A DNA stretch of 64,000 bases from Acinetobacter phage 133: the sequence record HM114315.1, one strand, 5' to 3'. Positions within the stretch are counted from its first letter, which is position 1. Each line of letters starts with the position of its first letter. This document shows positions 37,974 to 59,143 of this stretch, in pieces. The notes under the pieces are model-generated. The model had not been told where the DNA came from, searched no databases, and worked only from the letters and a program-made list of their open reading frames with translations. Position numbers and translations under genes: made by a program.

Positions 37974-39152
37974 TTAGAAGAAATCAAACATATCTGCCAA
38001 TGATGCACGATGTTCATAATGAATATCACATGCTGTACATAAAGCTTGCAATGGTTTAATGAATGATTTGGTGAATAGAGCAGGGTAATCAATTGCATCA
38101 ATTACGTCTTGTCGAATTTCCCGGGGCAATTCTGTTCCAGACGGCCATGCGATCGATTCAGAGTCAAACATATTGCCAGGTTGAAGAGGGAGTATCATTA
38201 CTTTTTCACCTTCACGAATTCGGACCATGCCTGGGAATCCGTCCGCGATTCGGTGATAGGCTAATACTGCTTTGATGTGGCCTGGGCATCCTTTAATTGG
38301 CAACCCCTTCGAGTCACTATATTTGGCAATATTATTGGCAGACGAAACTGATGCAATAGTTTTATAGTTCAATTGACGATACTCTTTTTCGTACTTCAGG
38401 AAGTATTCGTGCAATGAACTTTCACCTTCAATAAGCATCAGTCGAATTGACTCTTTTAATGCTTTTTGTACAGATTTTGGTGTGCTTGATTTCTGAGTTT
38501 CAAGGCCCATGATCTTAAGTTTAGGCTCAACAAAACGAACCCCTTCCATATCCCACACACAAAGAGCGTATCGTTTTTTCGCGGTCCAGAATCCACCCAA
38601 CCCGTGAGAACCGATTGGAGGACAAGCAATAGCTTCTCGGTCCATGAACATTAAATGTTCTCGGTTATTCATGTACTCGCATAGCTCACGATATCCTTTG
38701 TCAATGACTGGTTCCATGTTGTTCTTGCCAAATTTGTCCAGGAAGTCAACCAGCTTAGTTGTGGTGTCAAATTTGTCCATACCGAGTTTATTGATCAATA
38801 GTTCAACGTTTACATAGATAGAATCCGTATCACAATAGAAAACATACTCAAAGTTTGTGGTACCACATAATTGATTGAGATACTCATTTACTTTCCGGGC
38901 AATCCACTGAATAGCTACACGACCAAAGGTTGTAATGGCCGTTGCATTGCGCAGATCATACATACGGAAGTGAATGTTGCCCAGTGCACCGTATAATGAA
39001 TTTAATAAAATTTTTCGGTTCTGCTGGTTTGTGTCGCATTTTATTTCGTATCCATTACATTCAGCCAAGATGCGTTTAAGCTCTTCGTCCGTACATGTTT
39101 CAAGATACGCAATCTCGTCTTCATTAAATTTAATGCCGTAGTTTAATTCCAT
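37974..39152 (-). CDS. 43: DNA polymerase, C-terminal cistron (43B: fingers/palm/thumb)
   Basis: 392 aa from MELNYG (RBS GGAGACATA). Family B motifs KILLNSLYG (motif B) and YCDTDS (motif C). Colinear with T4 gp43 residues ~520-898. Confidence 0.9.
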   Translation of the reverse strand: MELNYGIKFNEDEIAYLETCTDEELKRILAECNGYEIKCDTNQQNRKILLNSLYGALGNIHFRMYDLRNATAITTFGRVAIQWIARKVNEYLNQLCGTTNFEYVFYCDTDSIYVNVELLINKLGMDKFDTTTKLVDFLDKFGKNNMEPVIDKGYRELCEYMNNREHLMFMDREAIACPPIGSHGLGGFWTAKKRYALCVWDMEGVRFVEPKLKIMGLETQKSSTPKSVQKALKESIRLMLIEGESSLHEYFLKYEKEYRQLNYKTIASVSSANNIAKYSDSKGLPIKGCPGHIKAVLAYHRIADGFPGMVRIREGEKVMILPLQPGNMFDSESIAWPSGTELPREIRQDVIDAIDYPALFTKSFIKPLQALCTACDIHYEHRASLADMFDFF

Positions 39153-39162
39153 TATGTCTCCA

Positions 39163-39195
39163 AAAATAAAAAGGACCACTAAGGTCCTTAATTAT
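39163..39195 (-). terminator. terminator hairpin (AAGGACC-ACTAA-GGTCCTT after A-tract) immediately upstream of 43B
   Basis: 7-bp perfect stem preceded by AAAAATAAAA on the plus strand. Confidence 0.5.
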
Positions 39196-39206
39196 ATCAA
39201 ATATGA

Positions 39207-39512
39207 CTAAAGCATACGGGCCGGCATATAAGGTGTATTTTTAGCACCTTTTACAGGAACCATAATGCGATCTTCAGACAACATTGTTCTGCACTTTTTA
39301 CACATTGTAATAGTTTCAACTTCAAACATTCGAGACGTTTGAGCATTGCGTTTACTCGCTTGAGTAAAATATGCCTTATGGTTAAATCCCGTGTTTTCAT
39401 ATTTGCCAGTGTATACCCCACGAGTCATTGGATCATGCTCGCAACGAAGTTTAAGTACAATTAATAAACGTTGAATCATTTTCTGTAAAAATTTCATAAT
39501 AAATTCCTTCAT
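39207..39512 (-). CDS. small Cys-containing hypothetical protein (101 aa, possible zinc ribbon)
   Basis: C..H.. and CKKC pairs. Last ORF of the gene 43 insertion. Confidence 0.45.
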   Translation of the reverse strand: MKEFIMKFLQKMIQRLLIVLKLRCEHDPMTRGVYTGKYENTGFNHKAYFTQASKRNAQTSRMFEVETITMCKKCRTMLSEDRIMVPVKGAKNTPYMPARML

Positions 39513-39583: not shown

Positions 39584-40321
39584 TCATAATTCCAATTTCC
39601 CGGCAAATTGGGCAATAGGTAGCCACTCTGTTTCTGATTCTTCATCATCTGCCCATGCAAATAATAATTGATCTACAGGACGCGGTGGTTGAGGGCTATG
39701 ACGGATTACATTGACCCATAGTTGCATAGATCCAGACGGCCCTTGCACAATTTCACTAATTGGATACCCTTGAAATAATTCTAAACCTTTATCATCCGTA
39801 ATATGGCGCACCATCACGCCAATTAAGGGATGAATAGGTTTCAAAGGCTTTCCCTCGGGTAAATCATCTAATTGGTACACAATGATGTCCAAATTCGGCG
39901 TTACTTCATTGATGATTTGTTCAATTACAGCCCAGTCACCACCTGCAATTCCAGCACCAATTTTTGGGATACCTACTTCAGGTCGACCTACTATAATGGA
40001 TGGTAAAATGAGGTCTAATTTTGTGAATAATGCGCGAATTGCGGTGTACAGATATTTAGGATCTGCTCGGCCTGGATTAAATTGTGTGTACCCGTTAACA
40101 ATTTTTCCATATGGTGTTTCGGCAAGCGTATATCCACCCCGTTTATCTCGACCATATTGGGTCAGCTTGTCAGCATCATACGCAACTGGAAATTGCTTTG
40201 CAATAGCCGCAGCGATACCAGCGCCCATAGTATGGAAGCAATTGCATCCATGCACAATAGCATCAAATTTACGCTCGCGGAAAGCGTCAAGTAAATCACC
40301 TTTTACGTATTGAGTAATCAT
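39584..40321 (-). CDS. macro-domain (ADP-ribose binding/processing) protein
   Basis: 245 aa from MITQYVKGDLLDAF. DAIVHGCNCFHTMGAGIAAAIAKQFP resembles the macro-domain signature VNAAN..L..GGGV.GAI. TAATG coupling with the upstream ORF. Confidence 0.65.
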   Translation of the reverse strand: MITQYVKGDLLDAFRERKFDAIVHGCNCFHTMGAGIAAAIAKQFPVAYDADKLTQYGRDKRGGYTLAETPYGKIVNGYTQFNPGRADPKYLYTAIRALFTKLDLILPSIIVGRPEVGIPKIGAGIAGGDWAVIEQIINEVTPNLDIIVYQLDDLPEGKPLKPIHPLIGVMVRHITDDKGLELFQGYPISEIVQGPSGSMQLWVNVIRHSPQPPRPVDQLLFAWADDEESETEWLPIAQFAGKLEL

Positions 40322-40623
40322 TATTTCTCCTCCGAATAAATGATGCATTGCATGAAAGTATGATAGTCCAAATACACGGTGTCGAGTCCGTCATCACAGT
40401 CAGCCCAAGCAAAATTCAAATAACAATCATCAAATACTTTGCCATCGTTGGTGTAAATTTTCAATCGAGGTGACATATTAGTATCAAAATATGAACGGAC
40501 CTCAACAACATGGCCTGTGATTTCAGGATGAGTTTTATGTTGGTATATTACACCAATTAACGGGTGTAATATAGTAGAGGGCCAGTTAGTCGTACCCTCT
40601 AAAATAGGTAAATGTGGAATCAT
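40321..40623 (-). CDS. hypothetical protein (100 aa), third gene of the coupled cassette
   Basis: ATGA overlap upstream, TAATG overlap downstream. Confidence 0.5.
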   Translation of the reverse strand: MIPHLPILEGTTNWPSTILHPLIGVIYQHKTHPEITGHVVEVRSYFDTNMSPRLKIYTNDGKVFDDCYLNFAWADCDDGLDTVYLDYHTFMQCIIYSEEK

Positions 40624-40904
40624 ATTTGCACTCCAAAGAAAGCAGTTAATACTTTAAACGGACGATTCAACGCCTGGTCAGTTAATAGACTATCGGTAGC
40701 CACCATGGTTACCAATTCAGGGCCGCCGTTTGGGCATTGAACATCAAGTGAAACTTTTAAATTACGTACAATATCATCAATTGTTCCACGGTGATTAGGC
40801 ATGGTATTCAACGCTTGATCAATAACCGGGTGTAATTCAACAACAAAACCATCTAGTCCAGGTTGGATAATCATTGGACCAACCATAATGTTAAACTGAT
40901 GCAT
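40620..40904 (-). CDS. hypothetical protein (94 aa), second gene of the coupled cassette
   Basis: Start set at MHQFNIMVGP. The ORF track's 154-aa form has an L/R-rich wrong-frame-like N-terminal extension. Start overlaps the stop of the 74-aa ORF (ATGCATCAGTTTAA). Confidence 0.5.
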   Translation of the reverse strand: MHQFNIMVGPMIIQPGLDGFVVELHPVIDQALNTMPNHRGTIDDIVRNLKVSLDVQCPNGGPELVTMVATDSLLTDQALNRPFKVLTAFFGVQI

Positions 40905-41115
40905 GTTCTTTCTCCGAATAGAAAGTATCAATTTTTTGCGTAACCTCATCCATTGATGCCGCGTCAAATGACGGATGATCAATAAGTGGGCAATACGCTT
41001 CCCAAGAAGTTTCAACCATACCACACCCACATTGGCATGAGCTAGCTGAAGAGGAGAGGTGATACTCGCGGTAAACGATTTCACCCTTTTCTACTGAAAT
41101 TGTAATCTGGCGCAT
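40891..41115 (-). CDS. small Cys-rich protein (74 aa, CQCGCG...C), first gene of the coupled cassette
   Basis: Protein-like composition in the overlap region. Preceded by an early-type promoter. Confidence 0.45.
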   Translation of the reverse strand: MRQITISVEKGEIVYREYHLSSSASSCQCGCGMVETSWEAYCPLIDHPSFDAASMDEVTQKIDTFYSEKEHASV

Positions 41116-41144
41116 GTTAATCTCGCGTTTGTTGACATGGAAGA

Positions 41145-41174
41145 ATATTAAACCAATAAAAATATTTTGTAAAC
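41145..41174 (-). promoter_or_regulatory. T4 early-type (sigma70) promoter: -35 GTTTAC, 18-nt spacer, -10 TAATAT (minus strand)
   Basis: GTTTAC matches the T4 early -35 consensus. It lies between the upstream terminator and the first cassette gene. Confidence 0.4.
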
Positions 41175-41182
41175 CCTAAAAC

Positions 41183-41204
41183 GAAAAAAGGTCCCGAAGG
41201 ACCA
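41183..41204 (-). terminator. terminator hairpin (GGTCC-CGAA-GGACC after A-tract)
   Basis: Perfect 5-bp GC stem preceded by AAAAAA on the plus strand. Confidence 0.45.
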
Positions 41205-41210
41205 TAAACC

Positions 41211-41531
41211 CTAGTTGTACTCTTTCTCGTCTACGTAAAACTCGATATCATGCATAATCCCATCGACAGTAACAACACCGGTTTCAAAATTAACATCCTT
41301 GACAAGAAATTTTACACGCCATGGATCAATTGTCCATCCAAATGGAGCTTTGCGATACGGACAAACATAATGTGCATTTGTAATTGTTTTGATTCCATCT
41401 TTAGTATTGATTTGGATTCCAGGGGCTCCAACGAATTGAACTACCCAACGTTCAGAAATGGTGTTACGAATGAAATCGTTATCCGTTGTCAATTTAACTT
41501 TTGATGAATCGAAAGAACTAACTTTAGCCAT
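41211..41531 (-). CDS. hypothetical protein (106 aa)
   Basis: Minus-strand ORF within the gene 43 insertion. Confidence 0.5.
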   Translation of the reverse strand: MAKVSSFDSSKVKLTTDNDFIRNTISERWVVQFVGAPGIQINTKDGIKTITNAHYVCPYRKAPFGWTIDPWRVKFLVKDVNFETGVVTVDGIMHDIEFYVDEKEYN

Positions 41532-41541
41532 ATCAGTTTAC

Positions 41542-41835
41542 TCATTTTGTTGCATGATTTGATAGAAACTCGTTACGAGCAGCGTTTTGCAAGTCGCGTA
41601 CGAATTGAGTTTTTTGATCTATATCATCCCAACGAACACCATATTGCAGATACCCTTTTTCATCCAGCATCTGGTTGATGCTGGCAATGATCTTTGCTGG
41701 CACTCGGACGCCATTATTAGGACCCAGTGAAAAACAACGGTTATTTTTTAAGGTGAAAATAAGACTAGGAAGCACGATAATTGCACGCATATTATTTCTC
41801 CACAGAAGTGTCAACAGGACGAACAGAATCAACAT
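41542..41835 (-). CDS. hypothetical protein (82-97 aa)
   Basis: Minus-strand ORF; the start may be the internal MRAII. Confidence 0.4.
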   Translation of the reverse strand: MLILFVLLTLLWRNNMRAIIVLPSLIFTLKNNRCFSLGPNNGVRVPAKIIASINQMLDEKGYLQYGVRWDDIDQKTQFVRDLQNAARNEFLSNHATK

Positions 41836-42073
41836 AAACCAGGTTTGCAGTTAGTGCTTTCAGTTCAAGGTCTAAGTTAAAAATAGTAGTGTCATTAATT
41901 GGTTCACCGATGTAACGGTGTAAGGCCGATTCGATATTTGCAACAACTTGTTTATTTGCAAGACGGTCAGCATGGTGAATATCCATTTTAATTGGGCATC
42001 CAGCTTGTACTGTAATTTTTACCATGCCGTAATCAAGAACAATTGGTTGTGTAGCAGATTGGATCAATTTCAT
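41792..42073 (-). CDS. hypothetical protein (93 aa), first ORF after 43A
   Basis: ATGA overlap with the 43A stop. Confidence 0.5.
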   Translation of the reverse strand: MKLIQSATQPIVLDYGMVKITVQAGCPIKMDIHHADRLANKQVVANIESALHRYIGEPINDTTIFNLDLELKALTANLVYVDSVRPVDTSVEK

Positions 42074-43590
42074 TTTTTACGTCTCGCAAGTATTGATTTA
42101 ATTACCTCGGCATTTTGTTCTGCCGTGATCATTTTTTTCTTCCATTCTTTACGCTGTACAAACATTTTAGTGGTTTCAATAGGAATGATTCCCTCTAAAA
42201 CTTTATCGTACATCATACCGTTTGGAGCACAACTAAATTCGGAGCTAGGTCTTGGAGCAGTCTTATCAATATACTGTTCCTGCGTACCGGGGCTAAACAT
42301 ACCACGAATTGTTTCGGGGCTAATATTGACCTGGCGAATAATGCTCGGGTACAAACTTGTTAAGTCAAAGCTCATCACATATTTTTGAAGACTTGGTGGA
42401 ATCTCTTTAACAAACGCACCAGGGAACTTCTGTTTAATGTGGCTTTGTGACTCAGGCAATACTACCTTGGTTTCTTTAAGCGAATTGAATAAAATCGCAT
42501 CCCATGTTTTTACCGGCGAAAGTACCGATCCAATGTTGATCTTAGCGTAATACGCCAAAGCAAGAGACAAGTCAATGAATCCGCGCTTTTTATCAATCAT
42601 CTGTACACAGTACACATCAATGATGTTATAGCTGATGTAACGTTGGTGGTTGGTCTCACGGAGTTTGTTAATAGGACCATCATACTCTAATTTTGAGACA
42701 TCTGTCTCCGCTTCAGAAATATAATCCAATGAATATGACGGTTGAGTCGTAAAGCCGAACTTTTTGTACAAGTCCATATAGTCAAGCACGTTAATTCCAG
42801 CAATGGTGAATAACTCGGCTTCATTATCATACTTATCCCGCATGACTTTTGAAGTTACACGACCAAAAGGTGACATACGCTTGACGAATGTCTGACCCAG
42901 CACATTCTTGATGCGGTTCATCACATATGGAATATCGAACTTGTCACAGTTCCAACCGGTCAACACCGCAGGAGGTTTCTGCTCAAATAAGTTGATATAC
43001 TCAAGCAATAATTCTCGTTCATTGTCAAATGGCATATAGACAACACGATCTAAAATGTGTTGAGGTACCATGTCCCCGCCTTCAGCTTCGGCCTTAGCCG
43101 CTATTTTCGCGCACCATTGATCCACAGTGGCCGATGTACTATGAGTTAAGTCAAATACATAGTAAGCATCATCAATTGAGTCATAATGTGTTATGGCATC
43201 AATCTCGTACACTGCAAGCATTGGTTCAGGGAAGTCAATACCGGTTACCTCGATGTCAAAATAAACAGTGCGGATTTTGGACTTATCGAATTCAACGTCG
43301 TCCTTGTAGATATCGCTGATATACGCCAGACGAAAGTCGTCCATGCCCATAATTTCAACGATGCCTTTTGTCTCGCGCATCCACTGTCGACAAGATGAAA
43401 TCCCATCAAACTTACGAGGTTTAGCATACTTTCCATAGATGTCTTTGTATTCAGACTCATCTTGGGTATGTACGAACATTGTTGGACCATAGTTAACCGA
43501 TCGAATTTGATCCTGTCCATCCACATCAATGTAACGCTCTAAAATTTCACCCCGATTGATGTCAACGTTAATATAAAATTCAGGTTTCAT
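42070..43590 (-). CDS. 43: DNA polymerase, N-terminal cistron (43A: N-terminal and 3'-5' exonuclease domains)
   Basis: 506 aa from MKPEFYINVD (RBS GGAG). Colinear with T4 gp43 1-~500: Exo I FDIEV, DAITHYDSIDD, NIIDV, YISYNIIDV, SFDLTSLYPSIIRQVNISPETIRG. Ends at a stop, after which unrelated ORFs follow. Confidence 0.9.
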   Translation of the reverse strand: MKPEFYINVDINRGEILERYIDVDGQDQIRSVNYGPTMFVHTQDESEYKDIYGKYAKPRKFDGISSCRQWMRETKGIVEIMGMDDFRLAYISDIYKDDVEFDKSKIRTVYFDIEVTGIDFPEPMLAVYEIDAITHYDSIDDAYYVFDLTHSTSATVDQWCAKIAAKAEAEGGDMVPQHILDRVVYMPFDNERELLLEYINLFEQKPPAVLTGWNCDKFDIPYVMNRIKNVLGQTFVKRMSPFGRVTSKVMRDKYDNEAELFTIAGINVLDYMDLYKKFGFTTQPSYSLDYISEAETDVSKLEYDGPINKLRETNHQRYISYNIIDVYCVQMIDKKRGFIDLSLALAYYAKINIGSVLSPVKTWDAILFNSLKETKVVLPESQSHIKQKFPGAFVKEIPPSLQKYVMSFDLTSLYPSIIRQVNISPETIRGMFSPGTQEQYIDKTAPRPSSEFSCAPNGMMYDKVLEGIIPIETTKMFVQRKEWKKKMITAEQNAEVIKSILARRKK

Positions 43591-59089: not shown

Positions 59090-59143
59090 GTTGGTTGGAA
59101 TAAGAGAATATTAAACCGATAGAAATAAAAAGTAAACCCTAAA

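Follow-up and report, generated by a model that had tools for sequence, protein, structure and literature searches.

Between the two cistrons of the split DNA polymerase gene, 43A and 43B, Acinetobacter phage 133 carries a cassette whose largest product, a protein of 245 amino acids (aa), appears to combine an AdfM-type macrodomain with an orphan, clade-restricted KOW-like domain that also has free-standing, fast-diverging paralogues. The genome (HM114315) is that of a T4-related phage published in 2010 (PMC2993671) and the stretch analysed, hereafter the window, covers 64,000 nt. The 100-aa protein encoded in it is 100% identical to Acj133p082 of phage 133; megablast of a phage collection gave no near-identical record, and the nearest is Acinetobacter phage Ac42. 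We consider it moderately probable that a conserved module in the polymerase gap, consisting of a terminator, an early promoter and five genes, supplies an AdfM-type macrodomain that counters a DarT2-type toxin. The cassette holds an unusual form of a known counter-defence and no new type of system. Its components, ordered from the promoter downstream, are as follows, with the expectation value given as E, the isoelectric point as pI and the ratio of non-synonymous to synonymous substitution rates as dN/dS.

41145..41174, minus strand: T4 early-type promoter, GTTTAC-18-TAATAT (equivalent to TTTACA-17-TAATAT), located by pattern and identical in the relative L003
40891..41115, minus strand: 74-aa gene, product acidic (pI 4.6) with a CQCGCG...C cluster; 83% identity in L003, dN/dS 0.12
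40620..40904, minus strand: 94-aa gene of the Ac42p093 / phrog_36432 family (phrog_36432 E 5e-56), a core resident of the gap; dN/dS 0.03
40321..40623, minus strand: 100-aa gene, Acj133p082, a free-standing KOW/SH3-like domain of the 'HPLIGV...FAWAD..ET.WL' type
39872..40321, minus strand: macro domain, residues 1-150 of the 245-aa protein; Tk.4/AdfM family, SCO6735-like Asn27/Gln80 type
39584..39871, minus strand: linker and C-terminal KOW/SH3-like domain (residues ~151-245) of the same protein with the stop codon; paralogue of the 100-aa protein
39207..39497, minus strand: 96-aa gene of the Ac42p089 family, fifth gene of the probable operon, upstream of 43B; 81% identity in L003

The initial annotation called the 245-aa protein a macro domain, and the fold is borne out despite a sub-threshold Pfam score. 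The Macro profile (PF01661) gives 20.0 bits against a gathering score of 22, with positions 1-117 of its 118 covered, and most homologues, including the 67% identical P0002, have a precomputed PF01661 match. The phrog_335 profile matches with E 7e-65. AlphaFold predicts a three-layer α/β/α macro fold for residues 1-150, where the predicted local distance difference test score (pLDDT) is 95-98. Comparison of this model with the PDB using Foldseek produced 196 matches at E ≤ 0.001 and among the matches listed these are mostly macrodomains; TARG1 (E 3e-10, target template modelling (TM) score 0.81), Poa1p and DarG are found with E of approximately 1e-9 to 1e-10 and target TM scores of 0.76-0.81. 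The structural neighbours, TARG1, Poa1p, the DarG macrodomains, BT1257 and SCO6735, represent the ALC1-like class.

The family is widespread in phages. Relatives of the macro protein were found by tblastn in 2,740 phage records, and among more than 1,000 Tk.4-type homologues the 120 best stand alone almost without exception, with lengths of about 142-199 aa. The only full-length matches among those 120 are P0001, which is identical, and P0002. Over 63 homologues Asn27 and Gln80 are invariant, and Gly33/Gly35 and the segment P119-x-x-G122-x-G124-x-A126-G127-G128 show little or no variation. With a profile built from 64 family members, SCO6735 comes first among solved structures (E 7e-16), with the DarG macrodomains 5m3i and 5m31 at E 5e-10 and 1e-8, respectively. 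SCO6735 (PDB code 5E3B, from Streptomyces coelicolor) uses Asn27 and Gln85 at the positions of Asn27 and Gln80 of the phage 133 domain. It differs in being a bacterial housekeeping or orphan-antitoxin enzyme, in sharing only about 20% identity in a structural alignment and in having no C-terminal barrel. With respect to the macro subtype, which the initial annotation had left to be settled, the catalytic residues are thus of the SCO6735 type, within the ALC1-like class.

The Tk.4 protein of T4, also named AdfM, shares 40% identity with the phage 133 protein over residues 1-148 (E 1e-34); both fall in phrog_335 and both come from T4-like phages. The N...YTQ...IGAGIxxGxW motifs are common to the two, including a glutamine at the position of TARG1 Lys84. 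We take Gln80 to lie at this lysine on the basis of an alignment made by hand with the OARD1 sequence. The architectures are different. Tk.4 is a single-domain protein of 155 aa encoded in the tk-vs region, whereas the phage 133 protein has 245 aa with an added KOW/SH3-like domain, and its gene is placed between 43A and 43B behind its own promoter.

Similarities to DarG are also evident. The macrodomains 5M31 and 5M3I match with Foldseek E values of approximately 1e-8 to 3e-9, the PADLOC DarG model matches in its macro part only (E 4e-8), and DarG too is a two-domain protein in which a macrodomain is joined to a second domain. The AdfM of a chimallivirus, PhiKZ gp104, has the same class of macrodomain. 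However, both DarG (Lys80) and PhiKZ AdfM (Lys78) carry a catalytic lysine in place of Gln80 of phage 133. The DarT-binding domain of DarG was not matched in the 245-aa protein, the PADLOC model aligning over positions 3-143 of 329 only, and the NCBIfam DarG model scores 30.5 bits, far below its cut-off of 250. A darT neighbour was not seen either, since the seven neighbouring gap proteins that were scanned gave no PADLOC match. A bona fide DarG is ruled out by these observations. The 245-aa protein is best assigned to the Tk.4/AdfM family of macrodomains, with an active site of the SCO6735 type (Asn27, Gln80) and not the lysine of DarG and TARG1.

What might the substrate be of this protein, the only enzyme in the cassette? 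When a T4 transposon library was challenged with DarTG2, tk.4 was the single significant hit; a clean knockout was sensitised and the gene was named adfM (bioRxiv 10.1101/2025.11.20.689424). SCO6735 hydrolyses ADP-ribose linked to thymidine in DNA and can rescue cells that express DarT, activities that are abolished by the Q85A mutation and nearly so by N27S (PMC9411070). In 2026 PhiKZ gp104, an unrelated phage macrodomain that has also been named AdfM, was described to remove DarT2 adducts from DNA in vitro (PMC13309987). DarTG systems are present in A. baumannii genomes (PMC11723918). The suggestion made at the outset, that the phage 133 macrodomain reverses DarT-type ADP-ribosylation of DNA, agrees with the T4 knockout phenotype and with the SCO6735-like Asn/Gln pair, and such a function is already known.

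In the mechanism that we prefer the early-type promoter would express the 74-, 94-, 100-, 245- and 96-aa genes from the gap module. The macrodomain would then act early in infection on ADP-ribose that a host DarT2-type toxin had placed on thymidine bases of single-stranded phage DNA and, to judge from the homologues, removal of these adducts would let replication go on. The barrel would, more speculatively, serve as a targeting or binding module for DNA, for the replisome or for the toxin.

Several considerations weigh against this mechanism. The anti-DarT2 role would be a transfer from a homologue of 40% identity, for which the evidence is genetic and published as a preprint, and early expression would follow from the GTTTAC-18-TAATAT consensus only. 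In our own reading of the alignment, which assumes an offset of 20 residues for a tag in the 5e3b chain, Val25 and Lys34 of SCO6735 are replaced by Gly25 and Ala34 in phage 133. The backbone of Val25 (or Ile) in SCO6735 holds the proposed catalytic water, whilst Lys34 and Lys89 are the lysines in contact with DNA (PMC9411070). Since the role proposed for Val25 is one of the backbone, a glycine at this position may or may not matter. The C-terminal 95 residues may form a small KOW/SH3-like β-barrel, a predicted five-stranded fold that is unspecific as to partner; the model of this domain was built on eight sequences and has a pLDDT of 75, and in the full-length model the values there are 38-74. 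Finally, SCO6735 also acts on protein ADP-ribosylation (PMC9411070) and a comparative-genomics survey by Aravind and colleagues has most phage macrodomains acting on soluble ADP-ribose derivatives of low molecular weight (PMC9503650).

The last two points are also the ground for a different proposal, that the substrate is ADP-ribose-1''-phosphate, O-acetyl-ADP-ribose, an NAD-derived immune signal, or RNA or protein that has been ADP-ribosylated, either by a host toxin such as CmdT or by Alt/Mod-type transferases of the phage itself. In structure and in sequence the domain matches Poa1p, which is an ADP-ribose-1''-phosphatase, and TARG1 just as well, and the names attached to homologues in the databases include 'phosphatase' and 'O-acetyl-ADP-ribose deacetylase'. 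These names, however, are annotation transfers and not assays. The only phenotype reported for the family, that of T4 tk.4, is the loss of resistance to DarTG2, in a screen with no other significant hit, and the invariant Asn/Gln pair is the one that SCO6735 needs for its action on DNA. We regard one of these other substrates as possible but not likely, and continue to prefer the reversal of DarT2-type modification of DNA.

The segment that sets the protein apart from Tk.4 is its tail. Residues ~155-245 are absent from nearly all homologues, and this part shows a relationship that the initial annotation had missed: the C-terminal third of the macro protein and the 100-aa protein are paralogues. 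In both, the motif P-x-x-(I/L)HPLIGV is followed at a similar distance by (L)FAW(A/V)D-acidic-(E/D)T-x-(W/Y)L, and an hhalign comparison of the two gives P 2e-4 for the first motif. A bridge is provided by Ac42p091, which in BLASTP is 29% identical to the tail over 87 aa (E 1e-6) and shares 30% identity with the 100-aa protein over 70 residues. A paralogue in the relative L008 is 38% identical to the tail (BLASTP, E 5e-11). Ten residues are invariant across the family. None of the eight family members searched has a match in Pfam or PHROG, whether to a KOW, Tudor or SH3 profile or to any other.

This barrel family is tiny. A word-indexed search returned seven clusters and an exhaustive HMMER search of 1.84 billion representatives only eight proteins, namely six known members, a weak match of 134 aa (the length of one of the L008 paralogues) and a weak match in multiple stretches of an 823-aa protein. 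In a library of viral structures the C-terminal domain matched only the protein itself. The family appears to be confined to the clade of phage 133, and every copy that could be placed lies between 43A and 43B, with one each in Ac42, L006 and L009, two in phage 133 and three in L008. The L008 paralogues (134, 147 and 146 aa; L008:3824-6441) include two that are adjacent and overlapping. The longer forms carry a C-terminal extension of ~65 aa, as does P0125 from L006. The 147-aa gene was considered as a stand-alone macrodomain beside a barrel gene, and this was ruled out as it is another copy of the barrel. A general role in DNA mimicry was also rejected for the family, given that pI ranges from 4.6 to 8.9 and that only a local acidic motif, not overall acidity, is conserved.

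The fusion recurs in four assemblies made independently, including one with only 67% identity, and an assembly artefact is ruled out as its source. In phage 133 a barrel gene comes first, then the macro domain and after it the second barrel; barrel genes lie side by side and overlap in L008, and in phage ZZ1 the tk.4 homologue is a stand-alone gene of 147 aa near srd and dda. These arrangements suggest that a tk.4-like gene, originally separate, came to lie between two barrel genes in tandem and became fused to the downstream copy.

Both barrel-containing proteins change quickly. Identity to the L003 orthologues is 67% for the macro protein and 48% for the 100-aa protein compared with 95% for 43B, and the non-synonymous rates (dN) are 0.22 and 0.34, respectively, whereas 43B and the 94-aa gene, both at 0.04, are five to nine times slower. 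Such rapid amino-acid change fits a role in interaction with the host. The KOW-like barrel might be a counter-defence domain in its own right, so far unrecognised, that works by binding and not by catalysis, its target being for example a DarT-like toxin or the single-stranded DNA of the replication fork. Both the conserved acidic stretch and the high rate of amino-acid substitution could be accommodated by such a role. Phage 133 would then have arrived independently at the two-part design of DarG, in which an adduct-erasing enzyme is coupled to a part that locates the toxin or blocks it. The free-standing barrels (the 100-aa protein, Ac42p091 and the three L008 copies) may then be stand-alone inhibitors diversifying in an arms race. 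We consider a binding counter-defence of this kind unlikely.

The fusion is rare and of value as a 'Rosetta stone', hinting that small proteins specific to the clade may share the pathway or the cellular site of the macrodomain. Since a natural fusion exists, the orphan barrel family may work with the macrodomain, and this offers an experimental handle on phage genes that have no assigned function. The Tk.4/AdfM macrodomain was recognised as acting against DarTG2 only in 2025-26 and is now placed in Acinetobacter phages of the T4-like group. Such phages may be of use in phage therapy, and A. baumannii does have DarTG systems.

The expression of the cassette depends on the elements that precede it. 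A T4 early-type promoter had been noted at 41145..41174 and it is indeed there, with GTTTAC at 41174-41169, an 18-nt spacer and TAATAT at 41150-41145, 29 nt upstream of the first ATG; the spacing of -35 and -10 elements fits the class. The exact GTTTAC-18-TAATAT pattern is found twice in the window (41174 and 59137), on the coding strand in both cases, compared with ~0.03 expected by chance, as estimated from base composition. A loose version of the pattern is not enriched in the window, with five matches compared to 3.3 expected, and a separate scan gave 13 matches on the minus strand and 10 on the plus strand. Immediately upstream lies a further element, identified in a scan for hairpins.

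41184..41203, minus strand: intrinsic terminator, a GGTCC-TTCG-GGACC hairpin followed by TTTTTT

Four to five diverged relatives (43A only 65-77% identical, or of other lineages) have a corresponding arrangement at this location. A module of hairpin, T-run, CATTTA, a -35 of the G(T/G)TAC type and a TAnnnT -10 occupies the equivalent place in Ac42 and in the metagenomic contigs L006, L008 and L009, and in Ac42, L006 and L009 the promoter reads GTTTAC- or GTGTAC-18-TAnnnT. The hairpin stems vary in sequence and keep their complementarity (GGTCC/GGACC, CCTCC/GGAGG, AGCTCAC/GTGAGCT and GCCACTC/GAGTGGC). This conservation in diverged relatives, with stems that remain complementary, is the strongest argument for a genuine promoter and terminator; the exact pattern also counts. 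L003, a closer relative, retains the promoter and the whole cassette. The second exact copy of the pattern, at 59108-59137 on the minus strand of the window, ends in GGTTTAATAT like that at 41145-41174 and is probably a further promoter of this type. No structured RNA was found anywhere in the window at the Rfam gathering thresholds.

Four overlapping genes of 74, 94, 100 and 245 aa had been described behind the promoter, and all are found in that arrangement on the minus strand. The 74- and 94-aa genes overlap by 14 nt (ATGCATCAGTTTAA), the junction of the 94- and 100-aa genes is ATGA and that of the 100- and 245-aa genes TAATG, and a GGAG-type ribosome-binding site precedes each downstream start. 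A spacer of 86 nt separates the 245-aa gene from the 96-aa gene, and the operon probably comprises all five genes (74, 94, 100, 245 and 96 aa) before the next hairpin. L003 keeps all five, with dN/dS of 0.03-0.22 where this could be computed; for the 100-aa gene synonymous sites are saturated relative to L003 and no value was obtained. The preservation of gene order under purifying selection argues that the five genes are real.

Do the four (or five) coupled genes encode one complex, with the small proteins as cofactors or regulators of the macrodomain? The overlapping stops and starts and the single promoter suggest co-expression at fixed ratios, the order of the cassette is kept in L003 and, given that the 100-aa and macro proteins share a domain, hetero-oligomers are conceivable. 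Overlap between genes is, however, the norm in the early regions of T4-like phages. Moreover the 94-aa, barrel (100-aa) and 96-aa families are found together in the gaps of Ac42, L006, L008 and L009, none of which has a macro gene there; in L009 the order behind the same promoter is 94-97-94-43B. The predominance of stand-alone proteins among the best Tk.4 homologues, and the location of the ZZ1 copy elsewhere in its genome, also argue against a single complex, which we judge improbable. The initial proposal of the three small proteins as cofactors of the macro protein is not upheld, because the 94-, 100- and 96-aa families travel together without it. The small genes look instead to be long-standing residents of the gap, and a cofactor role for them is unlikely.

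The small proteins had also been described as having no recognisable family. This is only partly right since the 94-aa protein belongs to the phrog_36432/Ac42p093 family and is 49-56% identical to homologues in Ac42, L006, L008 and L009. The description of the 74-aa product as Cys-rich is likewise weak with four cysteines in 74 residues, although three of them do fall in the conserved CQCGCG cluster. In BLASTP the gap genes of Ac42, L006, L008 and L009 gave no match to the 74-aa gene, so far detected in the lineage of phage 133 alone. The leader of this gene and its first ~8 codons (MRQITISVE, window 41085-41140) resemble the start of the 94-aa family in relatives (MHQYTIQVG), where the gene of that family directly follows the same promoter (compared at L009:445-500, L006:5190-5240 and L001:8575-8630). 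The 74-aa gene looks like a lineage-specific insertion that reuses a duplicated 5' end of the 94-aa gene.

The 96-aa protein is 27-44% identical to homologues in L009, L008, L006 and Ac42. It is basic (pI 10) with a C-x-H...C-x-x-C pattern reminiscent of a zinc ribbon. The homologous gene is found shortly upstream of 43B in Ac42 (p089), L006, L008 and L009, and directly adjacent to it in Ac42 and L009. On these comparisons it is the gap gene most constant in position.

The wider setting is that of the polymerase gene itself. All genes of the 43A-43B region are on the minus strand in the list of open reading frames (ORFs), and the gap holds eight ORFs, of 93, 97, 106, 74, 94, 100, 245 and 96 aa. 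The remaining features of the region are as follows.

42070..43590, minus strand: gene 43A, N-terminal cistron of the split PolB, 506 aa from its ATG; 60% identity to T4 gp43 residues 3-502
41792..42073, minus strand: 93-aa gap gene of the Ac42p095 family; 46% identity to Ac42p095 (E 1e-16), phrog_21960 E 3e-11
41542..41835, minus strand: 97-aa ORF from the ORF list, with no match in Pfam or PHROG
41211..41531, minus strand: 106-aa gap gene that closes the upstream transcription unit; phrog_18665 E 8e-58, also in L004
39171..39216, minus strand: MotA-box-like TATGCTTTA, 11 nt, TATAAT, then the hairpin AAGGACCTTAGTGGTCCTT and a T-run, from hairpin and pattern scans
37974..39152, minus strand: gene 43B, C-terminal cistron, 392 aa; 59% identity to T4 gp43 residues 512-897

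The initial annotation put the cassette inside the polymerase gene and found this placement striking. The cassette does sit within split gene 43, in the sense of lying between two separate cistrons, and the position is less exceptional than it seemed, as the 43A/43B split is already annotated in Ac42 and has been described for the Aeromonas phages 25 and 44RR (PMC2988022). Phage 133 43A is 77% identical to that of L008 and 65% identical to that of L006. Taken together the two cistrons are colinear with gp43 of T4. The gp43A and gp43B products add up to 898 aa, the length of T4 gp43, and the break corresponds to residues ~503-511 of the T4 protein. We take this point to be near the tip of the fingers domain.

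The content of the gap differs between phages. In the Aeromonas phages it consists of an untranslated spacer, to which a homing endonuclease may be added (PMC2988022), whereas in phage 133 it contains eight protein genes with their own terminator and promoter. Ac42 has seven ORFs between its annotated 43A and 43B, four of which are homologous to gap genes of phage 133. Among the phages examined a macrodomain gene in the gap is restricted to the phage 133 lineage. The gap appears to be a conserved accessory-gene region in the clade of phage 133, which documents a split-polymerase gap as a stable landing pad for accessory genes, equipped with a promoter.

One might suppose that the assembly or regulation of gp43A/gp43B is the task of the gap genes (the 93- and 94-aa families, the KOW-like domain and the 96-aa protein that resembles a zinc ribbon), with the macro fusion a passenger. 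In the relatives examined these families turned up nowhere except between 43A and 43B, and a basic C-x-H/C-x-x-C protein is encoded upstream of 43B in the relatives. Yet the two split products of Aeromonas phage 25 co-purify in active form, and the source names no extra factors (PMC2988022). Gap content and copy number vary widely, with one to three copies of the barrel domain and, in some phages, a Pyr_excise-like gene, which suits accessory genes, and the 100-aa gene, at 48% identity to L003 against 95% for 43B, evolves too fast for a core replication factor. Service to the polymerase is in our view doubtful, and the description of the gap as an accessory region that has acquired a putative anti-DarT2 macrodomain is preferred.

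A gap gene of 155-165 aa (L001:7772-8242, L006:5507-6004 and L008:4790-5257) is found in Ac42 and two relatives and not in phage 133; the L006 copy has a weak Pfam Pyr_excise match and the Ac42 copy is annotated 'DNA binding protein'. Overall the gap content appears mosaic across the relatives.

At the downstream end of the gap the second hairpin (39189-39171) is followed by a T-run, GGAG and the ATG of 43B. The element at 39171-39216 could be a middle-type promoter with a hairpin in the 5' untranslated region, perhaps an operator for 43B translation, instead of or besides a terminator. At the upstream end the 97-aa ORF overlaps the 3' end of the 93-aa gene by 44 nt. It probably starts instead at an internal ATG at 41790, to give 82 aa, with a GGAG ribosome-binding site, apparently GGAGAAATAAC, before it, as inferred back from the translation. 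In L006:7030-9313, an Ac42-like contig, and in L007 the 43B gene is interrupted, with pieces of 72 and 336 aa that match 43B placed ~210 nt apart. An ORF of 270 aa with no function assigned lies upstream of the interrupted gene, and the interruption could be an intron, a mobile element or a frameshift.

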